A DNA stretch of 64,000 bases from Gammaproteobacteria bacterium (GTDB lineage: Bacteria; Pseudomonadota; Gammaproteobacteria; UBA1113), in assembly GCA_020051015.1 (NCBI GenBank), contig JAGVJQ010000032.1:7199-71198 (forward strand), read 5' to 3'. Below are positions 31,386-42,877 of this stretch, in pieces. Numbering within the stretch: the stretch's first letter is position 1; every line of letters begins with the position of its first letter. The translations under genes were made by a program, and so were the position numbers. The notes below the pieces were generated by a model, which saw nothing but the letters and a program-made list of their open reading frames with translations, was not told the origin of the DNA and ran no database searches.

Positions 31386-31771
31386 AAAAGCCTATTTGGC
31401 TAACTACAACTCATGTGTTGGCATTTCATACTGATCAAATTCGTGAACATGGTGGCTTACATGGTATTCGAGATCATGGCCTATTTGAATCTGCAATAGC
31501 AAAACCTCAACAAGTTTATCATTACAATGATAAAGCGACATTATTTGATCTTGCTGCTGCATATGCTTATGGCATTATAAAAAATCACCCATTTCTTGAT
31601 GGTAATAAACGTACCGGTATTATTTGTGCTGGCGTTTTCCTTTCGCTTAATGGTTATTTTTTAAATGTTGAAGAAACTGAAATGGTCATGACTGTATTAG
31701 CATTAGCGAGCAGCCAAATGACTGAGTCTGAATTTGCCCATTGGTTGAAAAAAAATTCAACTGCAGAATAA
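31382..31771 (+). CDS. doc: Doc (death-on-curing) / Fic-family toxin
   Basis: Fic/Doc motif [11 protein letters not shown]; 129 aa. Confidence 0.85.
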
Positions 31772-31797
31772 TTTTAAACTATTTTTTAGGTAATTTA

Positions 31798-34572
31798 ATG
31801 GAAAAAGTTTACAACCCACATCAAATCGAACAAACCTGTTACCAAAATTGGGAACAACAGGGTTATTTCACTCCCACCGGCCAAGGTCCTGCTTATTGCA
31901 TCATGTTGCCACCACCTAATGTCACCGGTACTTTGCACATGGGACACGGCTTTCAACAATCGATTATGGATGCGTTAATTCGTTATCATCGCATGCATGG
32001 TGATAATACGTTATGGCAAATTGGTACTGATCATGCCGGCATTGCAACCCAAATGGTGGTTGAGCACCAATTATTACAACAAAATATTACACGTCATGAT
32101 CTCGGTCGTGAAAAATTTGTCGAAAAAGTATGGGAATGGAAAGAACAATCCGGAAATACCATATTGCAACAAATGCGCCGCTTAGGGGTATCTGCTGACT
32201 GGTCACGCGAATGCTTTACCATGGACGAGCATATGTCTGATGCCGTACGTGAAGTGTTTATTCGCTTATTTGATGAGGGATTAATTTATCGCGGCCAACG
32301 TCTCGTTAATTGGGATCCCAAACTTCATACCGCAATCTCTGATTTAGAAGTTGTAGCAAGTGAAGAACAAGGTTTCTTATGGCACATTCGTTATCCACTA
32401 GTGAATGGTAATGGTCATTTAATTGTTGCTACTACTCGCCCAGAAACCATGTTAGGTGATGCTGCAGTGGCAGTGCATCCTGAAGATGAACGTTATAAAC
32501 ATTTAATTGGCCAATTTGTTCATTTACCATTAACTGATCGCACCATTCCAATCATTGCTGATGAATATGTTGATAAAGAATTTGGTACAGGGTGTGTGAA
32601 AATTACACCTGCACATGACTTTAATGACTACGCCGTTGGCCAACGTCATGAATTACCCTTAATTAATATCTTAAATGCCGATGCAACTTTAAATAATGAG
32701 GTGCCTGAAGCTTATCGAGGTTTAAATCGCTTTGTTGCACGTGAAAGAATTGTTAATAATTTAGAAACACAACATTTACTCGAAAAAATCCAGCCTCATA
32801 CGCTAAATGTACCACGCGGCGATCGTTCAGGTGAAATTTTAGAACCCTTCTTAACTTTCCAATGGTATGTGAAAACTAAACCATTAGCTGAACCTGCAAT
32901 TAAAGCAGTTGAGAGTGGTGAGATTCGTTTTATCCCAGAAAACTGGAGTAAAACCTATTATCAATGGATGTATAACATTGAGGATTGGTGTATCAGTCGT
33001 CAATTATGGTGGGGACACCGCATCCCAGCTTGGTATGATGAAGCCGGTAATATTTATGTGGCGCAAGATGAAGCAAGTGCTCGTAAGAAATATCATTTAT
33101 CTGATACAGTTAAATTAACGCAAGATACTGATGTGTTAGATACGTGGTTCTCTTCAGCCCTATGGCCATTTTCCACATTAGGTTGGCCCCATGACACACC
33201 AGAATTAAAAACATTTTATCCAACCAGTGTCTTGGTCACGGGCTTTGATATTATCTTTTTCTGGGTTGCCCGCATGATTATGTTTGGTTTGAAATTTACT
33301 GGAAAAATTCCTTTTAAAGATATTTATATTACTGGCTTGATTCGCGATCATGAAGGCCAGAAAATGTCGAAATCAAAAGGTAATATTTTAGATCCCATTG
33401 ATTTAATCGATGGCATTGATCTTGATAATTTATTACAGAAACGTACCACCGGTTTAATGCAGCCACAAATGGCGGCTAAAATTGACAAAGCCACGCGCCA
33501 GCAATTTCCCGATGGTATTCCTGCATATGGTACTGATGCATTGCGTATGACATTTTACAGCATCAGCAGTCCAAGCCGTGATTTACGTTTCGAATTAAAT
33601 CGTCTTGAAAGTTGTCGCAATTTCTGTAATAAATTATGGAATGCCGCACGATTTGTTATTATGAATGTTGAAGGTAAAGATTGTTCATTTAACGAATCAG
33701 ATAATGCCCAACTTAATATTGCTGACAAATGGATATTATCTAAATTACAGCACTTAATTAATTCTATCGTTGATGTTGATCTTCCCAATTATCGTTTTGA
33801 TTTGGCAATGCAATCCATTTATGAATTTACCTGGAATGATTACTGTGATTGGTATTTAGAATTAGCAAAGGCTATTTTAGCAACATCAGATAATCCTGAC
33901 ATGCAACGTCGTACGCGCTATACATTGATAAATGTATTAGATCAATTATTACGAATATTGCATCCATTTATGCCATTTATTACGGAAACCATTTGGCAAA
34001 CGATAGCACCATTAACTGGCAAGAAAGTAGCCGCTAATGCAAGCATCATGACTCAAGCTTATCCTCAAGTAGATAATAGTGTTATCGATACAGAGAGTTG
34101 TGATGATATTGAATGGCTACAAAAAACTATCATTGGGATTCGAACTGTTCGCAGCGAAATGAATATTAATCCTGGTAAAATGCTGCCATTAATTATTCGT
34201 AATGCTGATGATAACGATAAAATACGTTTGAACCAATTAGAGTTATTTATTCGCAGTTTAGCAAAAGTAAATTCCATTGATTTTTTGGCTGCTGATATAG
34301 AAGCCCCTGCTGCTGCAACAGCTTTAGTTGGGCAAATGGAGCTATTAATTCCATTAGCTGGCTTAATTGATGTTACTGCTGAAACTGCGCGCTTGAATAA
34401 AGAAATTGGAAAATTGCAAGCTGAAATAACCAAGTGTGAAACTAAGTTAGGGAATCCAACGTTTGTTGATAAGGCACCACCAGCGGTGGTTGTACAAGAG
34501 AAACAACGTTTAAGTGATTTTTCTGCTGCATTGCAACAATTGCAAGAGCAATTGAAAAAATTAAAAATGTAG
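31798..34572 (+). CDS. valS: valine--tRNA ligase. The start is taken at MEKVYNPHQ; the track ORF begins at 31741.
   Basis: HMGH and KMSKS motifs; C-terminal coiled coil; about 924 aa. Confidence 0.95.
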
Positions 34573-34719: not shown

Positions 34720-35862
34720 CTACGCCAATCCAGCATCTCTGTCAGCATTAATTGAACCAGCCGCTAAAATTTTATAATCACGCTCGCTGATAATACCATC
34801 ATCAAATCGACGTTTTGCTTCGACGATCATAGGTTGTCCATATTCTTTCAACAAGCGGCGTGTTTCTGCTGTAATATTTTCGACATTGACACTTAATAAC
34901 TTATCACGAATAGCTTCATCAAAGATTAAAAATTCGCGCAATGCAGTGCGTTTACCATCAACAGTAGGTACTAGTTTTTGCCAAATAATTAACCGTACGG
35001 TTTCAATAATATCAATAGTACGGCCATGTCGTTCATCAGCTGGAAATGTATTGACTAAACGACGCATAACTTCGGAGACACCATTACTATGTAATGTCGT
35101 GTAAACCGGATGCCCAGTAATAGCTGCCTCCATTGCCGCTGCAATTGTTTCCGTGTCACGTGCTTCACCCACCAAAATCAAACGCGGTTTACGTCGTAAC
35201 GCATTGCGCACTCCGGCCGCAAAACTAGGCAAATGACGAGGAATTTCGGATTGACTAATGACAGTATTAGGTCTTTCAACGCTATCATATACAAATTCAA
35301 TAGGTGATTCATAAGTAAGTATTTTACGATTGCTTTCTGTACTTTCTGCTAAATGTCGAATAATCGCTGCTAATAAAGTACTTTTACCTGATCCAGTTGC
35401 GCCCGTAACATATACCACACCTTCTTGTGGCGCAATCGCTGGTAATAAAGTTGGTTCCAACTGCATGCTTTCTAATGTTGGAGGATCACTTGGAATAGTA
35501 CGTAAGGTCATTTGAATGGCATCATGCCCTTCTACTTGACAGCCTGTACCATTGACACGATAACGATAGCGCTCAGATCGACTTGGACGCACTTCATAGT
35601 GCGTATCAACATCTTTACCGCTTAAGATTTGCGTCGTACCATTTGGGCCATAAATAAAATTCAGCATGTCGCCAATTTCGTTATTGGTCATTCGTCTGCG
35701 CGTAATATGATATAAACGACCATACACTTCAGCAATAACATGCTCATTGGTTTGTAGCGTTATATCAGATGCTTGAATTTGATGGCAAAAAACCAACATT
35801 CGATCCATTTCATCTTTGGTAAAACGTAATGGTTCATCTGGCAAACTATAAGACTCATTCAT
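34720..35862 (-). CDS. dotB: Dot/Icm type IVB secretion ATPase DotB (PilT/VirB11 superfamily)
   Basis: Walker A GATGSGKST plus Asp and His boxes of PilT-like ATPases; 380 aa. Immediately downstream of dotA. Confidence 0.8.
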   Translation of the reverse strand: MNESYSLPDEPLRFTKDEMDRMLVFCHQIQASDITLQTNEHVIAEVYGRLYHITRRRMTNNEIGDMLNFIYGPNGTTQILSGKDVDTHYEVRPSRSERYRYRVNGTGCQVEGHDAIQMTLRTIPSDPPTLESMQLEPTLLPAIAPQEGVVYVTGATGSGKSTLLAAIIRHLAESTESNRKILTYESPIEFVYDSVERPNTVISQSEIPRHLPSFAAGVRNALRRKPRLILVGEARDTETIAAAMEAAITGHPVYTTLHSNGVSEVMRRLVNTFPADERHGRTIDIIETVRLIIWQKLVPTVDGKRTALREFLIFDEAIRDKLLSVNVENITAETRRLLKEYGQPMIVEAKRRFDDGIISERDYKILAAGSINADRDAGLA

Positions 35863-35877
35863 GCTACACTAATCCCA

Positions 35878-38337
35878 TTATGAAACCTTATTATTCTCAC
35901 CACCACCTTGTTTGCCCTGCGAAGCATTGAAGGCGGCCTCCATTGCTTTGGCTTGCAATGCACGGTTACGCTCATCTTTAACAGCCTCAGCACCCGCTTT
36001 GGCACCACCTTCTGCTTGACCAGAAACTTTTTGGCCGCCTTGCGATACTTCTTGATCGGCTTCTTGACCGGTTTGTTCTGGTGTTTCACCTATCCAACGT
36101 AATACTTGATCGGGAATTTTGTGGATTAACTTGAAACATTGTTGCATTAAATACGTTGCCAACGAGAAATAAGTGATCAGTGTAAAGAACATCGTAAACG
36201 GTCCAAAAACACTCATACTTAAAAATGAAATTGCAACTTTGAAACCACCATTTAAAATCTGAAACGCGATATATACTAATAAACTTGCAGCAATAAAACC
36301 AATAATCATCAACATGGGCCGCAAAAATACACTTAGTAATAACATAACACCCTTTTCAGATCGTCCCCAAATGTCATGCTGACCTTCTGGATGCACAATC
36401 CCCAGTGCTAAAATAGGTCCCGCCACCATCGCTTCAATTACCAAAATTAACCACGCTAGCGAACCTGCTGTAAACAAAATATAAGGGATTAATGGCATAT
36501 AATATCCCACCATGGCACCAAACCCCATGGTCATTCCTAACAATCCCATTGCCGGCAAAACGAATAAATCCAAGGCAATTTCAATTGAACTTGAAATATC
36601 ACTGCCAACAAACGGAATCCAACTAGTACCTGCATTTATGCCGACGACTAAACCACCAAATAACATAAATGTACTTGCCACAGTTACAACGATGGTTTGT
36701 CCCATGGTTGCTAATCCCACAACCGGATTACTGGATGTGCTTGTTATGACTTGCAGAAACCAATTAAAGATATCTTCAAACATACTATTAATCGCACCAA
36801 TCAACGGTGAGAGAATACCAGTACCGTTATTAGAGGTATAAGTAACATTAAAAGTTTGAGCCGGGCCATTTACATTTAAATCCTTTGGAATACACGGAAC
36901 AAGAATGGCACCCGCATTATTTGCAGTCGTTGCTGAAATGCTATTTGATCCAAGATTAGGACCACTACAAATTTGAGTAATTTGCTGAGTATCACTATAT
37001 TGCTGCGATGATGCGTAATTGTTAATGGCACCTAAATTCGGCGTATTTACTTTAGGGGCATTCACATTAGGCGTGGTTTCAGCAGTAATTTTACTTAATA
37101 AAAGGTAGTAAGTTCCTGCATACAACCAACCATATTGTCGTGCTTGATTTAAATCGCCCATAATTGCCACAGATGCATTGGATGCAAGTGACTGTCTTAA
37201 TTGTTGTGTGTCACCCAGCCCTCCCTGCGTCCCTTTAGTCAATAACCCACCGCCGCCCATTTGTCCTTTGACAATAGGTGCATTCGCGCCAGTAGATTGC
37301 GCTGAATAGTTTTGTGCCGCATTAAGAATTTGTCGTTGTACCTCTTGAATACAGTTTTTATCGGTATTTAAGTTGCAATAATTTGATGTGTTAACATAAT
37401 AATTAGCAGCTTGAGCTAATGTTTGCGTGATGCTAATCAATACTTGGTTCGATTGCATGGCTTTTCGATAAGCATATACGTCATCCAAGGATCCGTAATT
37501 ACCATAATTAGTAAAAGCATTGGTAATTTGTGACACACCCTCCGCTGCTGGCACATAATTCGCAACATTACCCATGGCAGTATTATTAGTATTAAAACTA
37601 CCTTGTTGTCCTACTCCAGAAGGTTTTTGTGGCGCAGTTAACTCAACCGTTCCACAAATAGCTGGTTGATTAGGATTGGTAATACCAAATTTTATTGCCG
37701 TACCATTTGATGCATCAGATGATGGGTAAAAAATACTGGATGTAGATGGTTGAGTTTGTACACCTTGCTCAAGTTGATTTTGCGCTAAAGCTAATGAATA
37801 GGTACAAGAGGCATTTTTAAAGATTTGGATAATTGCAGGCATAACTTGTTGCGAAACATAAGGCACTTGTGGTGTCGCATTCCCTTCCATCACATTTTTC
37901 AGATATTGATTCCATAGATAATCCGCTGCACCAACACCTTGCACTACAATCCACATAATAATAACTTGAATAATCGCGTAACCACCGGCTTTTACTGGTA
38001 ATAACATGGCAAAACCCGCGGCCATACGCAATGGGATCCACACTGAGCTCCATTTTTTCCCTAATAATTCACCATCATGTGCCGTATTAACAGTAGAAAC
38101 GATAATGGCATAAAGAATAATAAAACCACCGACTACTAAGGCAACGTTATTAAAGAGCAAAATTACAGTCTCTAGTGGACCATTAGTCGCACCACCGATC
38201 ACATTACCAACTTGACCGAATATTTCGCTTAAAAACAACATGGATTGATCCATGTTAGGCACCGCAAAAATACTACCTGCCGCTAAACTTAGTGGAGATA
38301 CTAATAATAAAATTAAGCCGAGGAAAATACGCATCAC
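35878..38337 (-). CDS. dotA: Dot/Icm type IVB secretion protein DotA
   Basis: 819 aa with signal peptide. N-terminal block IIVSTVNTAHDGELLGKKWSSVWIPLRMAAGFAMLLPVKAGGYAIIQVIIMWIVVQGVGAAD matches the conserved DotA N-terminal region. Large Q/N/T-rich periplasmic domain and a C-terminal polytopic TM bundle. Confidence 0.8.
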   Translation of the reverse strand: MMRIFLGLILLLVSPLSLAAGSIFAVPNMDQSMLFLSEIFGQVGNVIGGATNGPLETVILLFNNVALVVGGFIILYAIIVSTVNTAHDGELLGKKWSSVWIPLRMAAGFAMLLPVKAGGYAIIQVIIMWIVVQGVGAADYLWNQYLKNVMEGNATPQVPYVSQQVMPAIIQIFKNASCTYSLALAQNQLEQGVQTQPSTSSIFYPSSDASNGTAIKFGITNPNQPAICGTVELTAPQKPSGVGQQGSFNTNNTAMGNVANYVPAAEGVSQITNAFTNYGNYGSLDDVYAYRKAMQSNQVLISITQTLAQAANYYVNTSNYCNLNTDKNCIQEVQRQILNAAQNYSAQSTGANAPIVKGQMGGGGLLTKGTQGGLGDTQQLRQSLASNASVAIMGDLNQARQYGWLYAGTYYLLLSKITAETTPNVNAPKVNTPNLGAINNYASSQQYSDTQQITQICSGPNLGSNSISATTANNAGAILVPCIPKDLNVNGPAQTFNVTYTSNNGTGILSPLIGAINSMFEDIFNWFLQVITSTSSNPVVGLATMGQTIVVTVASTFMLFGGLVVGINAGTSWIPFVGSDISSSIEIALDLFVLPAMGLLGMTMGFGAMVGYYMPLIPYILFTAGSLAWLILVIEAMVAGPILALGIVHPEGQHDIWGRSEKGVMLLLSVFLRPMLMIIGFIAASLLVYIAFQILNGGFKVAISFLSMSVFGPFTMFFTLITYFSLATYLMQQCFKLIHKIPDQVLRWIGETPEQTGQEADQEVSQGGQKVSGQAEGGAKAGAEAVKDERNRALQAKAMEAAFNASQGKQGGGENNKVS

Positions 38338-38843
38338 TTGTCTCCACTCACTTTTTCATTAAGCCATTCTTTAATTGTGCAACCTAATTTATGATTTTTT
38401 ATCTGAAAATACCAAAAATGGTAACGACATGCTGTTACCAAACATAATAATGTCACGACAAACGCCAATGCAGCGCTAGTAAATGAGGCTTGCCATAATA
38501 AATAAAGGGTATACAAAAGCGTTAATGCTCCAAATGAGCCAATAATAATAACCATGCGCAGAAAATTAGATTGACGCTCTTGAATATCTGCTTCAGACAA
38601 ATTTAAGCGTTTCATTGCCTCTTCAAAACTTTCAGTATGTTCCGGCTTTTGAATAATAAAGAGAGAACGTGCATTATCCTTCACATAACTAGAATTAGAC
38701 TTGACTGCATCCCAGCTTACCCAGGATTTAACGCCGTTTCCAGCACGTTTCAATAAACCTTTTTTCGGTTTTTCAACCTTGCTCACCGGTGGTTGTTTCT
38801 GTTCTTCAACATTCGTTTCTGGTACTTTTGGTGTATCCGCCAT
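38334..38843 (-). CDS. icmV: Dot/Icm protein IcmV. The start is taken at MADTPK; the track ORF begins at 38900. There is a 4 nt ATGA overlap with dotA.
   Basis: Two TM helices and C-terminus RYHFWYFQIKNHKLGCTIKEW as in IcmV. Translationally coupled to dotA. Confidence 0.65.
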   Translation of the reverse strand: MADTPKVPETNVEEQKQPPVSKVEKPKKGLLKRAGNGVKSWVSWDAVKSNSSYVKDNARSLFIIQKPEHTESFEEAMKRLNLSEADIQERQSNFLRMVIIIGSFGALTLLYTLYLLWQASFTSAALAFVVTLLCLVTACRYHFWYFQIKNHKLGCTIKEWLNEKVSGDK

Positions 38844-39030
38844 GCGATTGACCTCAAAATAAAATTTACCCTTTAATTTCAATATAACACTGGAAGTCAA
38901 CCCCCGCCAATACTGTTTAAAAAAAATACATCATTTTAATGAAAATGCTTGCTTGGGCTTGCAACTAACTCTATAGTGTGCATATATGCCCATTATATTT
39001 GAAGATGCGAGTATCATTAAATATGACCAA

Positions 39031-39112
39031 GTGGGCGGAGCAAAGGGAGGGTTCCCGTCCGCGCGGAGCTTGCGAGCACGGCGGGATACCCGCAGCTCCG
39101 GGGCCCCACTTG
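39031..39112. repeat. GC-rich REP-like hairpin element inside the divergent icmV / icmW promoter region
   Basis: gggcggagcaaagggagggttcccgtccgcgcggagcttgcgagcacggcgggatacccgcagctccggggcccc, with inverted arms gcggagcttgcg / cgcagctccg. It stands out sharply from the AT-rich surroundings. Confidence 0.7.
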
Positions 39113-39152
39113 CCCCATTTCAAATTTCATATAAATTTCAGGAGATATCGAT

Positions 39153-39602
39153 ATGGTTGACCTTAGTCATGAAGGCGCACATAGGTTTTGGCGAGAATAT
39201 CCCGATCCAATGATTTATCGTGTGGTTGCTTTTATGGAAGGTGTGGAACAATGGACTTTAGACGGCGATCCAGCCTTTGAAGCCGCAGTTGCCAAATTGG
39301 GCGAAGAATTAGATAAAGTAGGCAATTATGAACTTGGAATGAAAGATGAGTTTATTAAATTTGCCACGTATATTAAAGCAGCGCGTAATTTACGCCTTTT
39401 ACAAGCATTAGACACCGCTCATCCTGGTGCCGCATCCAAATTACTTATTCATGCTGAAGAATCCAGCAAAAGCAGTGATGATATTCCTGGCCTTTTTTTA
39501 AGGCGTAATATAGTCTTTGAAAGATTACGTTTATTAGGCCGCATTTTTTCTATAGAACGTTTAGATTTAATTGTAAAAGCGCTTGGAGGTGAAGATGTTT
39601 AA
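39153..39602 (+). CDS. icmW: Dot/Icm type IV adaptor protein IcmW
   Basis: 149 aa. DLSHEGAHRFWREYPDPMIYRVVAFMEGVEQWTLDGDP and RLLQALDTAHPGAASKLLIHAEE match the IcmW family. Confidence 0.8.
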   Translation: MVDLSHEGAHRFWREYPDPMIYRVVAFMEGVEQWTLDGDPAFEAAVAKLGEELDKVGNYELGMKDEFIKFATYIKAARNLRLLQALDTAHPGAASKLLIHAEESSKSSDDIPGLFLRRNIVFERLRLLGRIFSIERLDLIVKALGGEDV

Positions 39603-40068
39603 AGTAGCTAAATTATCCTCGTTATTCGTTGTTACTGGGCTGATTAGTATGAGTTCAGCTTGGGCAGCAGACGCGAATGACACCCTTTACCAACAAGTTG
39701 GTAATCAAGATATCAGTGTTTTAAATAGTATGAATGTCCAAGCATCGCAAAACCAAGCCCAACAAATGGGTACGCAAATGCAACAAGATATTAATCAGCA
39801 ACGTGCTCAAAATCAACAATATTTACAACAAGTTGGACAACAAATCATTCAAGCTGGAACACGTAATGGCGCCACTCAAACCACTATAACACCACCAGCG
39901 CCAACCAATACTCCCACGACGAATACACCGACCACAGGGCCATCAAACAATGCCAGCCCTGCCACTTCTACTAATAAATCCACATCTACAAACCCACCAG
40001 CTCCCACTACGCCAAATGGTTTAAGTAATGGTGCTAATGGTGGCAGCGGTTGGAGTTATGGTTTTTAA
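39583..40068 (+). CDS. secreted Q/N- and T/P-rich protein (161 aa)
   Basis: Signal peptide (LSSLFVVTGLISMSSAWAAD), a poly-Q/N central part, a TNTPTTNTPTTGPS repeat, and a G-rich C-terminus. It overlaps icmW by 20 nt and is in the same frame as the next ORF but separated from it by TAA. Confidence 0.5.
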   Translation: MEVKMFKVAKLSSLFVVTGLISMSSAWAADANDTLYQQVGNQDISVLNSMNVQASQNQAQQMGTQMQQDINQQRAQNQQYLQQVGQQIIQAGTRNGATQTTITPPAPTNTPTTNTPTTGPSNNASPATSTNKSTSTNPPAPTTPNGLSNGANGGSGWSYGF

Positions 40069-40104
40069 ATCTATTTTCAATTAATTTTTCCACTGGAGGT
40101 TTCT

Positions 40105-41103
40105 GTGAAACATAAAGCACAAAAATTGGTAGCGTTAACTACTGTAACAACAGCGATGACGGTAGGATTATTAGGTAGCAGTACAGCGCTAGCTGATGAT
40201 AGCTCTGACAGCGTTCATCAAATTACAAGTGGTGTTGCTAGTGCATTTGGCTTTGGCACTATCAATGTCTTAAGTGGCTTATATACTTATTTACAAGATT
40301 GTGAAAATGCTTATTCAGTTTGGGTACTTAAAACCATGCAAGGTAATGCTACTCAATACGCCATTACTGACTCACAAAAATTACAGGCACAAACCGCAAA
40401 AGATACTACGGCCTTTATCTTTAACGCGGTCACCGCACCTAATGCTCAGCCACAAGCAACAACGTCTACGGGCTTACCAACTAATTATTCTGCTGGTGTT
40501 TATGCAGCTATGGTACCGGTTAACAGAGACACGATGGGATTAGCTAAATCTACTTACTTATCAAGTGAAGCGCTTTTTGCCTCAACCAAATACAATGGTG
40601 ATACACAGCGTCAACAAGCTGGCACATTTATTCAATTTTTAGGTGATGCGGGAGCCAGAGTAACGCCGCTAAATGCGCAAACGTTACAAAAAGCAGATGG
40701 TGCAACAGCCGCATCTTATTTAAACTCACTAGCAACTTATTATGCCGGTCAATCAGTGGGCTTAAATGCACTTTACAATTTGTATAATGAACGTATCCCA
40801 GTTCAACAATTAAATGGTGAAAGTGTCTTATCAAATGATCAAAAGCAAGTTCTGCGCCGCATGCAACCTGCTTGGACCGAAAGTGTCAGTAAAATGACAA
40901 TTGTTGATGTTGCACGTGAAACGCTTTATACACAAGCCGAAATGAATTATCAACTCTTTCAGCTACGCATGCAGTTAGAGCAATTAAATGCTACATTGGC
41001 AGCTATGCAAATGGAGCAACAACAGATTTCTGCTAAACCATTATTGATGGGTAAAGAACAACAAGTTATCCAATCAGCTAATGCGGCAAGTGCTCCTAGT
41101 TAA
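40105..41103 (+). CDS. icmX: periplasmic protein, probable IcmX homologue
   Basis: GTG start with GGAGG RBS. Signal peptide MKHKAQKLVALTTVTTAMTVGLLGSSTALA. 332 aa with a C-terminal coiled coil. Sits in the icmX position after icmW. Confidence 0.45.
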   Translation: MKHKAQKLVALTTVTTAMTVGLLGSSTALADDSSDSVHQITSGVASAFGFGTINVLSGLYTYLQDCENAYSVWVLKTMQGNATQYAITDSQKLQAQTAKDTTAFIFNAVTAPNAQPQATTSTGLPTNYSAGVYAAMVPVNRDTMGLAKSTYLSSEALFASTKYNGDTQRQQAGTFIQFLGDAGARVTPLNAQTLQKADGATAASYLNSLATYYAGQSVGLNALYNLYNERIPVQQLNGESVLSNDQKQVLRRMQPAWTESVSKMTIVDVARETLYTQAEMNYQLFQLRMQLEQLNATLAAMQMEQQQISAKPLLMGKEQQVIQSANAASAPS

Positions 41104-41260: not shown

Positions 41261-42877
41261 CTATGTCGAATAATCGCTAAATATACAATTCCCACCGACC
41301 ATTTTTGCTTTTAACAACGCTTCACTCGCAGTATGAATAAAACTTTCAACTGATAAACAAGGTGGAAATGATGCTATTCCAGCACTAAAAGTCGCTAAAA
41401 ATGATTCCCCTAAATTATTAAATACAACTTGACTAAAATACTCTTTAAATTCATTAATAAGAGTTAAAGCGGATTGTACCGTTGTATTAGGTAAGACCAT
41501 TAAAAAGCTACCACTACTATAACGACCAATTAAATCCGATTTTCGCAATCGTTCACATAGCATCAAAGATAAGCTCTTAATCACCCGATCGCCAACGATA
41601 TAACCATAATCATCATTAATTTTCTGACAATTATCTATATCTATTATTGCAACAGTCAATGTTTGATGAGCACGATTTGCTAATTTTAATTCTGACTCGA
41701 GTTCTTGAATAATTGAATTATGATTAAGAACACCTGTTAAATGATCTTTCATAATTAAAGTCTGCAATGCATGATAACGTTTGATTCTATTTTTAATTGT
41801 TGAAATTAAAATACCAGGATCCATTGATTTTTTGATAACATCATCAGCACCCATGCTCATAGCATATAATTGTTTTTCAGGGTTTTCTTCCATCGATAAG
41901 AAAATTATTGGAATGTGTACATAAGCATCACGTTGACGAATTATTTTAACTAATTCTAGCCCACTACAAATTGGCATATAAATATCAGTTAAAATCAAAT
42001 CCGGGTGAAATTCATGTAACGCTTTATCGATAAAGACTGGTTGATTAATCACCATTGTTGCGATACCAGCATACTGTAAAATCGTTTCATAAACTTGTGC
42101 TACATCAGGTTCATCCTCAATGAGTAATACTTTATAAGGATCTTTATCTTCATTATGTAATAAAGCTAATTTAGTTATGATTTCTTCTTCTTTAAATGGA
42201 TATGGGAAATAACCATCACCGCCAGCGCGAACAGCCTGCAGGTGTAATAAAAAGTTATCACTTTCACCCAGAAAAAATATTGGAATTGCTAACGTTAATT
42301 TTGGACTTTTAATCTTTTTAAGAATTTCTTCTAATTCTTCATTGAGACATTTAATATCAACAATAATTAATTCCGGTAAACTTTCATCCAATATTTTTTT
42401 GAAGGATTCGACATCGTGCAATATTTTAGTAATATAGCCAAATTGTTCAAAATGTAATTTTTGTAAGGAATCTTTATCGTCGGTAGGAGCAAGGTAATAA
42501 ATCATATGATTTTGGATTAACAACTCATTCTTATTCTGTGTATAAAGCGTTTTATTTTTAATGTCTGCTGCATCCAATAGCATTTGACAAAATTGAGATA
42601 ATCGCGCAATTTGATCTTCGCTTGGATTAACCTTCAATAAGTTTTTCAAAAAAAACTCGAAAGTTTCAGCTGACTTTTCTAATTTCGTAAAGCCATACAT
42701 TGCTGCGGAACCATGTAAAGCATGCACTTTACAATGTAGGTCAACAAGTACATTGTTATCCCACTTTGCATTGAGTTGCTCGCAAATGGTTACAATTTCA
42801 TTGATTTTATGCGGTATACTTTTTTTATATTTATCAATAAGTAATGAGATTTTTTCATGAAAATCCATCTTTTCCAA
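41261..42877 (-). CDS. HPt - pseudo-receiver - receiver - degenerate GGDEF multidomain response regulator
   Basis: N-terminal HPt (HALHGSAAMYGF). A second receiver has canonical Asp (DLILTDIYMP), T/S and K. The C-terminal GGDEF fold has an SGSF motif in place of GG(D/E)EF (RYSSGSFLMVLP). Confidence 0.75.
   Translation of the reverse strand: MEKMDFHEKISLLIDKYKKSIPHKINEIVTICEQLNAKWDNNVLVDLHCKVHALHGSAAMYGFTKLEKSAETFEFFLKNLLKVNPSEDQIARLSQFCQMLLDAADIKNKTLYTQNKNELLIQNHMIYYLAPTDDKDSLQKLHFEQFGYITKILHDVESFKKILDESLPELIIVDIKCLNEELEEILKKIKSPKLTLAIPIFFLGESDNFLLHLQAVRAGGDGYFPYPFKEEEIITKLALLHNEDKDPYKVLLIEDEPDVAQVYETILQYAGIATMVINQPVFIDKALHEFHPDLILTDIYMPICSGLELVKIIRQRDAYVHIPIIFLSMEENPEKQLYAMSMGADDVIKKSMDPGILISTIKNRIKRYHALQTLIMKDHLTGVLNHNSIIQELESELKLANRAHQTLTVAIIDIDNCQKINDDYGYIVGDRVIKSLSLMLCERLRKSDLIGRYSSGSFLMVLPNTTVQSALTLINEFKEYFSQVVFNNLGESFLATFSAGIASFPPCLSVESFIHTASEALLKAKMVGGNCIFSDYST

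Follow-up and report, generated by a model that had tools for sequence, protein, structure and literature searches.

The stretch of DNA analysed here (the window) comprises 64,000 nucleotides (nt) of contig JAGVJQ010000032.1 (assembly GCA_020051015.1, positions 7,199 to 71,198 of the forward strand) from a gammaproteobacterium of the lineage UBA1113. Between 39,153 and 41,103 it carries icmW and, behind it, two consecutive open reading frames (ORFs), here called ORF1 and ORF2. Purifying selection acts on ORF1, a real gene that belongs to a conserved protein family hitherto without annotation; ORF2 is, by position and by the clear homology of its C-terminal half, the IcmX of this lineage. The explanation favoured here, which as a whole appears reasonably probable, is that the locus is the Dot/Icm type IVB cluster of an uncultured bacterium related to Legionella and Coxiella, whose icmW-ORF1-icmX unit combines a short IcmX with a separate ORF1 protein acting as an accessory partner of the DotA-IcmX module. 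The unit is laid out as follows.

39153..39602, plus strand: icmW, 149 amino acids (aa), at the head of the icmW-ORF1-icmX unit (Pfam IcmW, E 2.5e-54; NCBIfam IcmW_IVB, E 8e-51)
39595..40068, plus strand: ORF1, 157 aa (sequence, family alignments, HMMER scan and dN/dS, the ratio of nonsynonymous to synonymous substitution rates)
40069..40104, plus strand: spacer of 36 nt between ORF1 and ORF2, with GGAGG at 40095-40099 (sequence; kept in the related locus L027)
40105..41103, plus strand: ORF2, 332 aa, a divergent short IcmX by profile homology to Legionella IcmX

ORF1 and its family

An earlier note, made from the letters of the window alone, had described two consecutive ORFs with signal peptides after icmW, lying in the same frame and separated by an in-frame TAA and a 36-nt spacer with a GGAGG, the second of them 332 aa long. 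This layout is borne out by the sequence, with the GGAGG of the spacer 5 nt before the GTG at 40105. The first ORF, given in the note as 161 aa from a TTG at 39583, has to be shortened: this TTG overlaps a GGAGG at 39585-39589 and thus sits on the ribosome-binding site, whereas the ATG at 39595 lies 5 nt past the GGAGG and agrees with the MxK N-termini of the homologues. The start of ORF1 is therefore likely to be ATG 39595, which gives a protein of 157 aa rather than 161. From there the gene overlaps the stop of icmW by 8 nt and runs to a TAA at 40066-40068.

The ORF1 protein can be divided into a signal peptide (residues ~1-24, AWA/AD), a Q-rich helix-like segment (~28-92), a P/T/A/S-rich spacer (~87-148) and a C-terminal W-S-Y-G-F; the poly-Q, T/P repeats (a TNTPTTNTPTT stretch) and G-rich tail that had been noted earlier are all present. 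The N-termini of both ORF1 and ORF2 have a basic start, a hydrophobic core and an A-x-A site (AWA/AD and ALA/DD, respectively), as judged by a Kyte-Doolittle hydrophobicity scan and by reading the N-termini, not by SignalP. ORF1 is accordingly predicted to be exported by the Sec route, with a mature protein of ~13 kDa. It has no significant match in Pfam, NCBIfam or the Protein Data Bank (PDB).

A HMMER scan of 1.84 billion representative proteins, with a profile built from the window ORF1 and nine homologues, retrieved 15 relatives of 129-192 aa, the ten new ones being single-member clusters. Together with proteins read from loci, the family amounts to 25 members with one common layout, and all 25 end in W-x-[Y/L]-G-F followed by a TAA stop codon. 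The core of the Q-rich segment reads ..NQQYLQQVGQQII.. in the subgroup to which the window belongs and ..QQILAQRLQALSAAMQAQ.. in another; the P/T/A/S-rich spacer varies from 28 to 96 residues, and a [T/S]-G-[L/F] motif often stands ~18-26 residues before the end. Word-indexed protein searches returned nine matches for ORF2, at least nine for the ORF1-family alignment and at least 16 for a broad IcmX alignment; no named Legionella or Coxiella protein was among the matches listed for the ORF1-family and IcmX searches.

The position of the gene is as constant as its C-terminus. The order icmW-ORF1-icmX was found in all 16 related contigs inspected (the window, L001-L004, L006-L009, L019, L021/L022, L024-L027 and the contig of P0009/P0014), and in none of them, relatives with E 4e-4 included, does an ORF1-family gene lie away from this position. 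Even the weakest matches (P0032, P0034 and P0035, E 5e-6 to 8e-4) fall between icmW and an IcmX-like gene. The linkage of the family to the icmW-icmX slot is thus absolute in the sample, with a start-stop overlap of icmW and ORF1 in most loci, although the proteins are only ~22-55% identical across lineages.

Selection on ORF1 was estimated against L027, an independent assembly whose ORF2 is ~90% identical. The dN/dS is 0.03 for icmW, 0.09 for the whole of ORF1 and 0.04 for ORF2; within ORF1 it is 0.03 in the helix segment and highest, at 0.15, in the P/T spacer. As dS is 1.1-1.7 and so near saturation, these ratios are approximate. That the P/T-rich part evolves fastest and also varies in length across the family makes it a plausible flexible spacer.

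The frame that ORF1 and ORF2 have in common in the window, with starts 510 nt apart, is a coincidence: across the 15 loci with DNA, where 15-53 nt separate the two genes, the frame is shared in six, as against about five (one-third) expected by chance. A scan of the ORF1-ORF2 spacer found no terminator-like site, so the two genes are probably co-transcribed, and icmW, ORF1 and icmX are predicted to form one operon. Since the start of ORF1 overlaps the stop of icmW and icmX follows within the 15-53 nt, the cell probably makes all three proteins together.

ORF2 and the Legionella IcmX

The IcmX of Legionella pneumophila has, behind its signal peptide, an N-terminal helix, then an extended domain (residues 90-290) and finally a pair of C-terminal helices. 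Its copies assemble into a VirB5-like pentamer that sits on the inner-membrane pentamer of DotA, and the extended domains mediate contacts with DotA and probably also with the outer-membrane complex (bioRxiv 10.1101/2025.06.23.660953). Within the Dot/Icm system, no part is less conserved than the N-terminal region of IcmX (PMC6761968), and the Coxiella and Legionella proteins are only ~24% identical (PMC12039232).

ORF2 (GTG 40105 to 41103, 332 aa) is composed of a signal peptide (~1-30, ALA/DD), N-terminal helices (~36-109, a low-confidence prediction), a short middle part and C-terminal helices homologous to IcmX. Its match to the NCBIfam model IcmX_IVB is confined to the C-terminal part (15.4 bits, E 0.007) and does not reach the 500-bit equivalog cutoff of that model, which appears to be tuned to Legionella-type IcmX. 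As a single sequence ORF2 matches the PDB entry 9ngy, “IcmX (IcmY)”, with E 0.054; a profile of 19 non-Legionella IcmX-like proteins matches residues 237-451 of the same chain with E 1.3e-18, and hhalign comparison of ORF2-type IcmX with five Legionella IcmX proteins gives probabilities of 96-99.5% (best E 3e-22). The confident alignment covers the C-terminal ~175 aa, including the motifs Y..L..Y.A.QSVGL..LY and AE.NYQ. The earlier note had named two signs that would mark ORF1 as an independent gene, namely a full-length alignment of ORF2 with IcmX and ORF1 homologues unlinked to icm genes: the alignment was obtained over these ~175 aa, and the homologues were never found unlinked.

The missing length can be placed by means of a conserved anchor, FIQFL/FIRYA, found at residue 175 of ORF2 and at 250-284 of the Legionella IcmX proteins, so that most of the deficit is N-terminal of it. 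Between the N-terminal region and the anchor there are ~20-60 residues, as against ~130-200 in Legionella. A weak hhalign alignment (P 0.085) sets ORF2 residues 123-153 against Legionella residues ~85-118; if it is right, the deficit lies in the extended domain and not at the N-terminus. From these comparisons, ORF2 appears to be short mainly because it has little sequence at the position of the ~200-aa extended domain of Legionella, and the N-terminal IcmX helix is presumably present within it. Bridging the N-termini through intermediate IcmX proteins (L008, L009, L019 and L021) aligned the C-terminal part alone. A likeness between SLILWLNNNL and LAKYLLNLG in the N-termini was discarded for want of statistical support. 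One subgroup of the IcmX-like proteins (L008 5843-7006, L019 5424-6614, L021 5420-6490) has N/G-rich low-complexity N-terminal extensions, for example GVGGAINQGVNNTLSNIGTSVNAGVGNIGGSV, which are absent from the IcmX of the window.

The distribution of the two arrangements was followed in an IcmW-anchored genome scan which, with over-specific patterns, gave 14 loci, none of them from L. pneumophila or Coxiella. In five loci from metagenome-assembled genomes (MAGs) of Legionella or Legionellaceae (L012, L014-L017), icmW is followed directly by icmX without a small ORF; the start of icmX adjoins the icmW stop or overlaps it, and the gene encodes 426-476 aa (435-476 in the mechanically called ORFs, 426 in L012 after correction of its start). 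The nine other loci, from MAGs of Legionellales or unclassified Gammaproteobacteria (among them L006-L011, L013 and L018), have an exported ORF of 119-192 aa and then an IcmX-like ORF of 304-456 aa. The W-x-Y-G-F family accounts for five of the nine small ORFs. Those of L010, L011, L013 and L018 share its layout of signal peptide, helical part and low-complexity tail and have no detectable sequence similarity to it; a distant relationship of these four to ORF1 is not supported.

In lineages with the W-x-Y-G-F protein, IcmX measures 316-396 aa and the extended domain is small or missing; short IcmX homologues thus exist in the non-Legionella lineages sampled. The icmX gene has been called Legionella-specific and absent from Coxiellaceae (PMC8896642). 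The IcmX-like ORFs that follow icmW in the sampled non-Legionella loci qualify this claim, which probably reflects a failure of orthology detection on a divergent protein.

What ORF1 may do, and the rival explanations

In the favoured reading, Sec would export ORF1, which would then work alongside IcmX and DotA, either in the periplasm or at the surface. The conserved helix of ORF1, in which the hydrophobic residues Y76, L77, V80, I84 and I85 stand amid glutamine-rich sequence, may be an interaction module that packs on helices of IcmX or DotA. The fast-evolving P/T stretch of variable length would be a spacer bridging the periplasm, and the invariant aromatic C-terminus, W-x-Y-G-F, could serve as a docking strand onto a component of the outer-membrane complex or the outer membrane. 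ORF1 may in this way supply in trans the contacts that Legionella IcmX makes through its extended domain. A more ambitious proposal, which we put forward tentatively and hold to be rather doubtful as it stands, is that ORF1 is an unrecognised conserved type IVB subunit of non-Legionella Legionellales that tethers a minimal IcmX cap to the outer-membrane complex and that the extended domain of IcmX has made redundant in Legionella. If true, it would be a case in which the function of one subunit has been absorbed into a neighbouring protein.

Several results weigh against the favoured reading. The N-terminal 145 residues of ORF2 have no significant hhalign match to the N-terminus of Legionella IcmX (P 0.085). 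AlphaFold2 renders ORF2 all-helical, with a pLDDT of 47 (9 sequences) or 56 (16 sequences) and of ~50-60 or lower in the helices 36-77 and 82-109, and a Foldseek search of the PDB with this low-confidence model gave no match under E 0.9; neither output was used as evidence. A small ORF does not always go with a short IcmX, since that of L010 accompanies an IcmX of 456 aa. In Coxiella, a transposon insertion in cbu1651, a hypothetical gene immediately upstream of icmX, caused no defect in vacuole biogenesis (PMC4117601), which argues against an essential structural role; insertions at the 3' end of cbu1651 were judged to be polar on icmX (PMC4117601).

Two other explanations of the layout do away with ORF1 as a gene in its own right. 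The TAA could be an error of sequencing or assembly, or ORF1 a spurious frame in low-complexity DNA. The composition of ORF1 and the coincidental shared frame invite this suspicion and nothing else does, whereas L027 independently has the identical TAA, spacer, GGAGG and GTG, all related contigs carry two separate ORFs in mostly different frames, ORF1 has a dN/dS of 0.09 at a dS above 1, and its C-terminal motif is invariant in 25 proteins. An artefact is refuted by these comparative data and retains practically no probability. The other explanation is that icmX is split into two exported polypeptides, as the earlier note had suggested, or that the two genes were fused in an ancestor of Legionella, with ORF1 as an N-terminal part that has diverged past recognition. 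The note had pointed to a summed length of 493 aa. The L. pneumophila protein does have 466 aa (PDB 9ngy chain), and the sum, 489 aa after correction of the start, is still close to it; moreover, Legionella icmX begins exactly in the slot where ORF1 starts, abutting or overlapping the icmW stop, its N-terminus is poorly conserved (PMC6761968), and ORF2 and Legionella IcmX do not align with confidence over their N-terminal halves. The ORF1 profile, however, resembles no part of IcmX. The comparison with the IcmX N-terminus that the note had proposed found no match: against Legionella IcmX, full length or N-terminal and with or without signal peptides, the hhalign probability is at most 1.2%, the 466-aa IcmX chain is not retrieved from the PDB even at E <= 10, and a local hmmsearch of the profile against all IcmX proteins with filters off returned nothing. 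No fused ORF1-IcmX form occurs among the 15 relatives from the 1.84 billion representatives, and the frame relation between the two ORFs is random. ORF2 has its own signal peptide and, ahead of the conserved region, ~145 residues for which helices are predicted with low confidence, the missing length appears to fall in the middle of IcmX rather than at its N-terminus, the P/T spacer and W-x-Y-G-F end of ORF1 have no counterpart in Legionella IcmX, and a small ORF also precedes the 456-aa IcmX of L010. The split-IcmX reading is thus not supported and seems very improbable. The note's alternative, a novel low-complexity periplasmic protein placed ahead of icmX, fares better in that ORF1 is a separate protein, although it is not a local insertion but a member of an old, conserved family that is linked to Dot/Icm genes and under purifying selection.

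The main rival accepts ORF1 as a gene and denies it a part in the secretion machine: ORF1 would be a passenger of the operon, an independent Sec-secreted protein of the periplasm or surface, such as a factor directed at the envelope or the host, or a ligand recognised through its exposed Y-x-F C-terminus by PDZ-domain proteases or assembly factors of outer-membrane proteins. We regard this as possible, but on the whole unlikely. CBU1651, the Coxiella protein encoded at the same position, has 15.9 kDa and a signal peptide and is released into the culture supernatant by a Sec-dependent route (PMC3882888), and the transposon insertion in its gene was without a Dot/Icm phenotype (PMC4117601). ORF1 also resembles none of the known Dot/Icm components. 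Its C-terminus follows an aromatic-x-aromatic-G-F pattern, checked as a sequence pattern only; aromatic-x-F ends resemble the C-terminal signals of outer-membrane proteins, and no beta-barrel lies upstream of the W-x-[Y/L]-G-F in ORF1. The Coxiella data, however, favour a passenger only if ORF1 and CBU1651 are related; their likeness is one of position, size and signal peptide. A location between icmW and icmX in 16 of 16 contigs, mostly with an overlap of icmW, would be unusual for an unrelated gene whose proteins are so divergent. An accessory partner of the DotA-IcmX module remains the favoured role; ORF1 is a concrete candidate for an overlooked component of the DotA-IcmX gate, being inseparable from icmX in the lineages sampled, and its W-x-[Y/L]-G-F end gives a sequence definition to a family that has no current annotation.

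Gene neighbourhood and known systems

The Dot/Icm genes identified on the other side of icmW stand on the opposite strand, so that icmW is divergent from dotB-dotA-icmV. The plus-strand unit ends with ORF2.

34720..35862, minus strand: dotB, the Dot/Icm ATPase, at one edge of a region-I-like cluster (NCBIfam dot_icm_DotB, E 9e-185, 614 bits, over the curated cutoff)
35878..38337, minus strand: dotA, 819 aa (NCBIfam T4SS_DotA, E 1.7e-132; DotA_TraY, E 9e-104)
38334..38900, minus strand: icmV, longest ORF (NCBIfam IcmV_IVB, E 2.1e-44)
38890..38990, no strand assigned: conserved icmV-icmW intergenic block (near-invariant columns in an alignment with L027, L004 and L001)

The true start of icmV may lie further in than that of the longest ORF, because the family match spans residues 49-186 only. 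The block at 38890-38990 is nearly invariant even though the IcmX proteins of the same relatives are only 53-90% identical, and it probably serves both directions as a promoter or as a binding region for a regulator. The sole site in a consensus promoter scan of the icmV-icmW region is a sigma-70-like one on the minus strand (38910..38881); a sigma-70 promoter proposed by eye (TTGCTT-N17-TATAGT, 38949-38977) failed the same scan. The icmW leader (39010-39135) contains an imperfect hairpin of ~110 nt with a GC content of ~52%, compared with ~38% nearby, and a minimum free energy of -46.6 kcal/mol (z -1.8). The hairpin occurs in one copy in the window; L027, the closest relative, and L004 lack it, and in L001 its place is taken by another insertion that forms a hairpin. 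An Rfam search with this GC-rich hairpin 5' of icmW gave no match.

On the other side, a gene for a diguanylate cyclase of the response-regulator type (receiver and GGDEF, with a long N-terminal extension) occupies 41261-42877 on the minus strand, convergent with the end of icmX, and genes for subunits like the antiporter-type subunits of NADH dehydrogenase lie beyond it. At the other edge, dotB directly adjoins dotA (34720-38337) and the next gene is valS (31741-34572), not dotC or dotD. Measured against the gene order of region I in L. pneumophila, the region-I genes are here ordered differently or dispersed.

Among characterised systems, the nearest to ORF2 is IcmX of L. pneumophila (lpg2689; PDB 9ngy/9nh0), which shares with it the place downstream of icmW and opposite icmV-dotA, the signal peptide and the homologous C-terminal part. 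The two differ in length (332 versus 466 aa), in the short stretch that ORF2 has at the extended domain and in the N-terminal half, which cannot be aligned; in addition, the window has an extra gene, ORF1, before icmX when compared with the Legionella loci examined. IcmX has been described as a structural analogue of VirB5/TraC, having one N-terminal and two C-terminal helices and sitting as a pentamer on a base that resembles VirB6 (bioRxiv 10.1101/2025.06.23.660953). With its 332 aa and small middle domain, ORF2 is nearer to VirB5 in size than Legionella IcmX is, although no sequence match, and no structural match by Foldseek with the low-confidence model, links it to the VirB5/TraC minor pilins of type IVA systems.

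A parallel of position is offered by the type IVB conjugation system (R64 type) of the IncI1 plasmid L023 (NZ_MN419435.1), reached through a DotA/TraY search: at 2179-3962, traV (204 aa) directly precedes and overlaps traW, and traX (IcmV) and traY (DotA) follow. TraW, which we take to be the counterpart of IcmX, matches the ORF2 family weakly in its C-terminal helix (hhalign E 1e-3, probability 22%), and a tblastn search of plasmids with ORF2 gave no match. TraV is unlike ORF1 in having no signal peptide, Q-rich helix, P/T spacer or W-x-Y-G-F end; it was ruled out as a homologue (hhalign probability 0.0), and the parallel is one of position only.

The arrangement closest to that of the window is the pair cbu1651-icmX of Coxiella. 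CBU1651 resembles ORF1 in position, size (15.9 versus ~16 kDa) and signal peptide. It probably falls outside what can be recognised as the W-x-Y-G-F family, because the exhaustive HMMER scan with the ORF1 family gave no match attributable to a cultured organism. By this analogy, the icmW-ORF1-icmX unit is best seen as a variant of the known cbu1651-icmX type of arrangement and not as a new kind of system, and the Coxiella counterpart, if related, is open to experiment.

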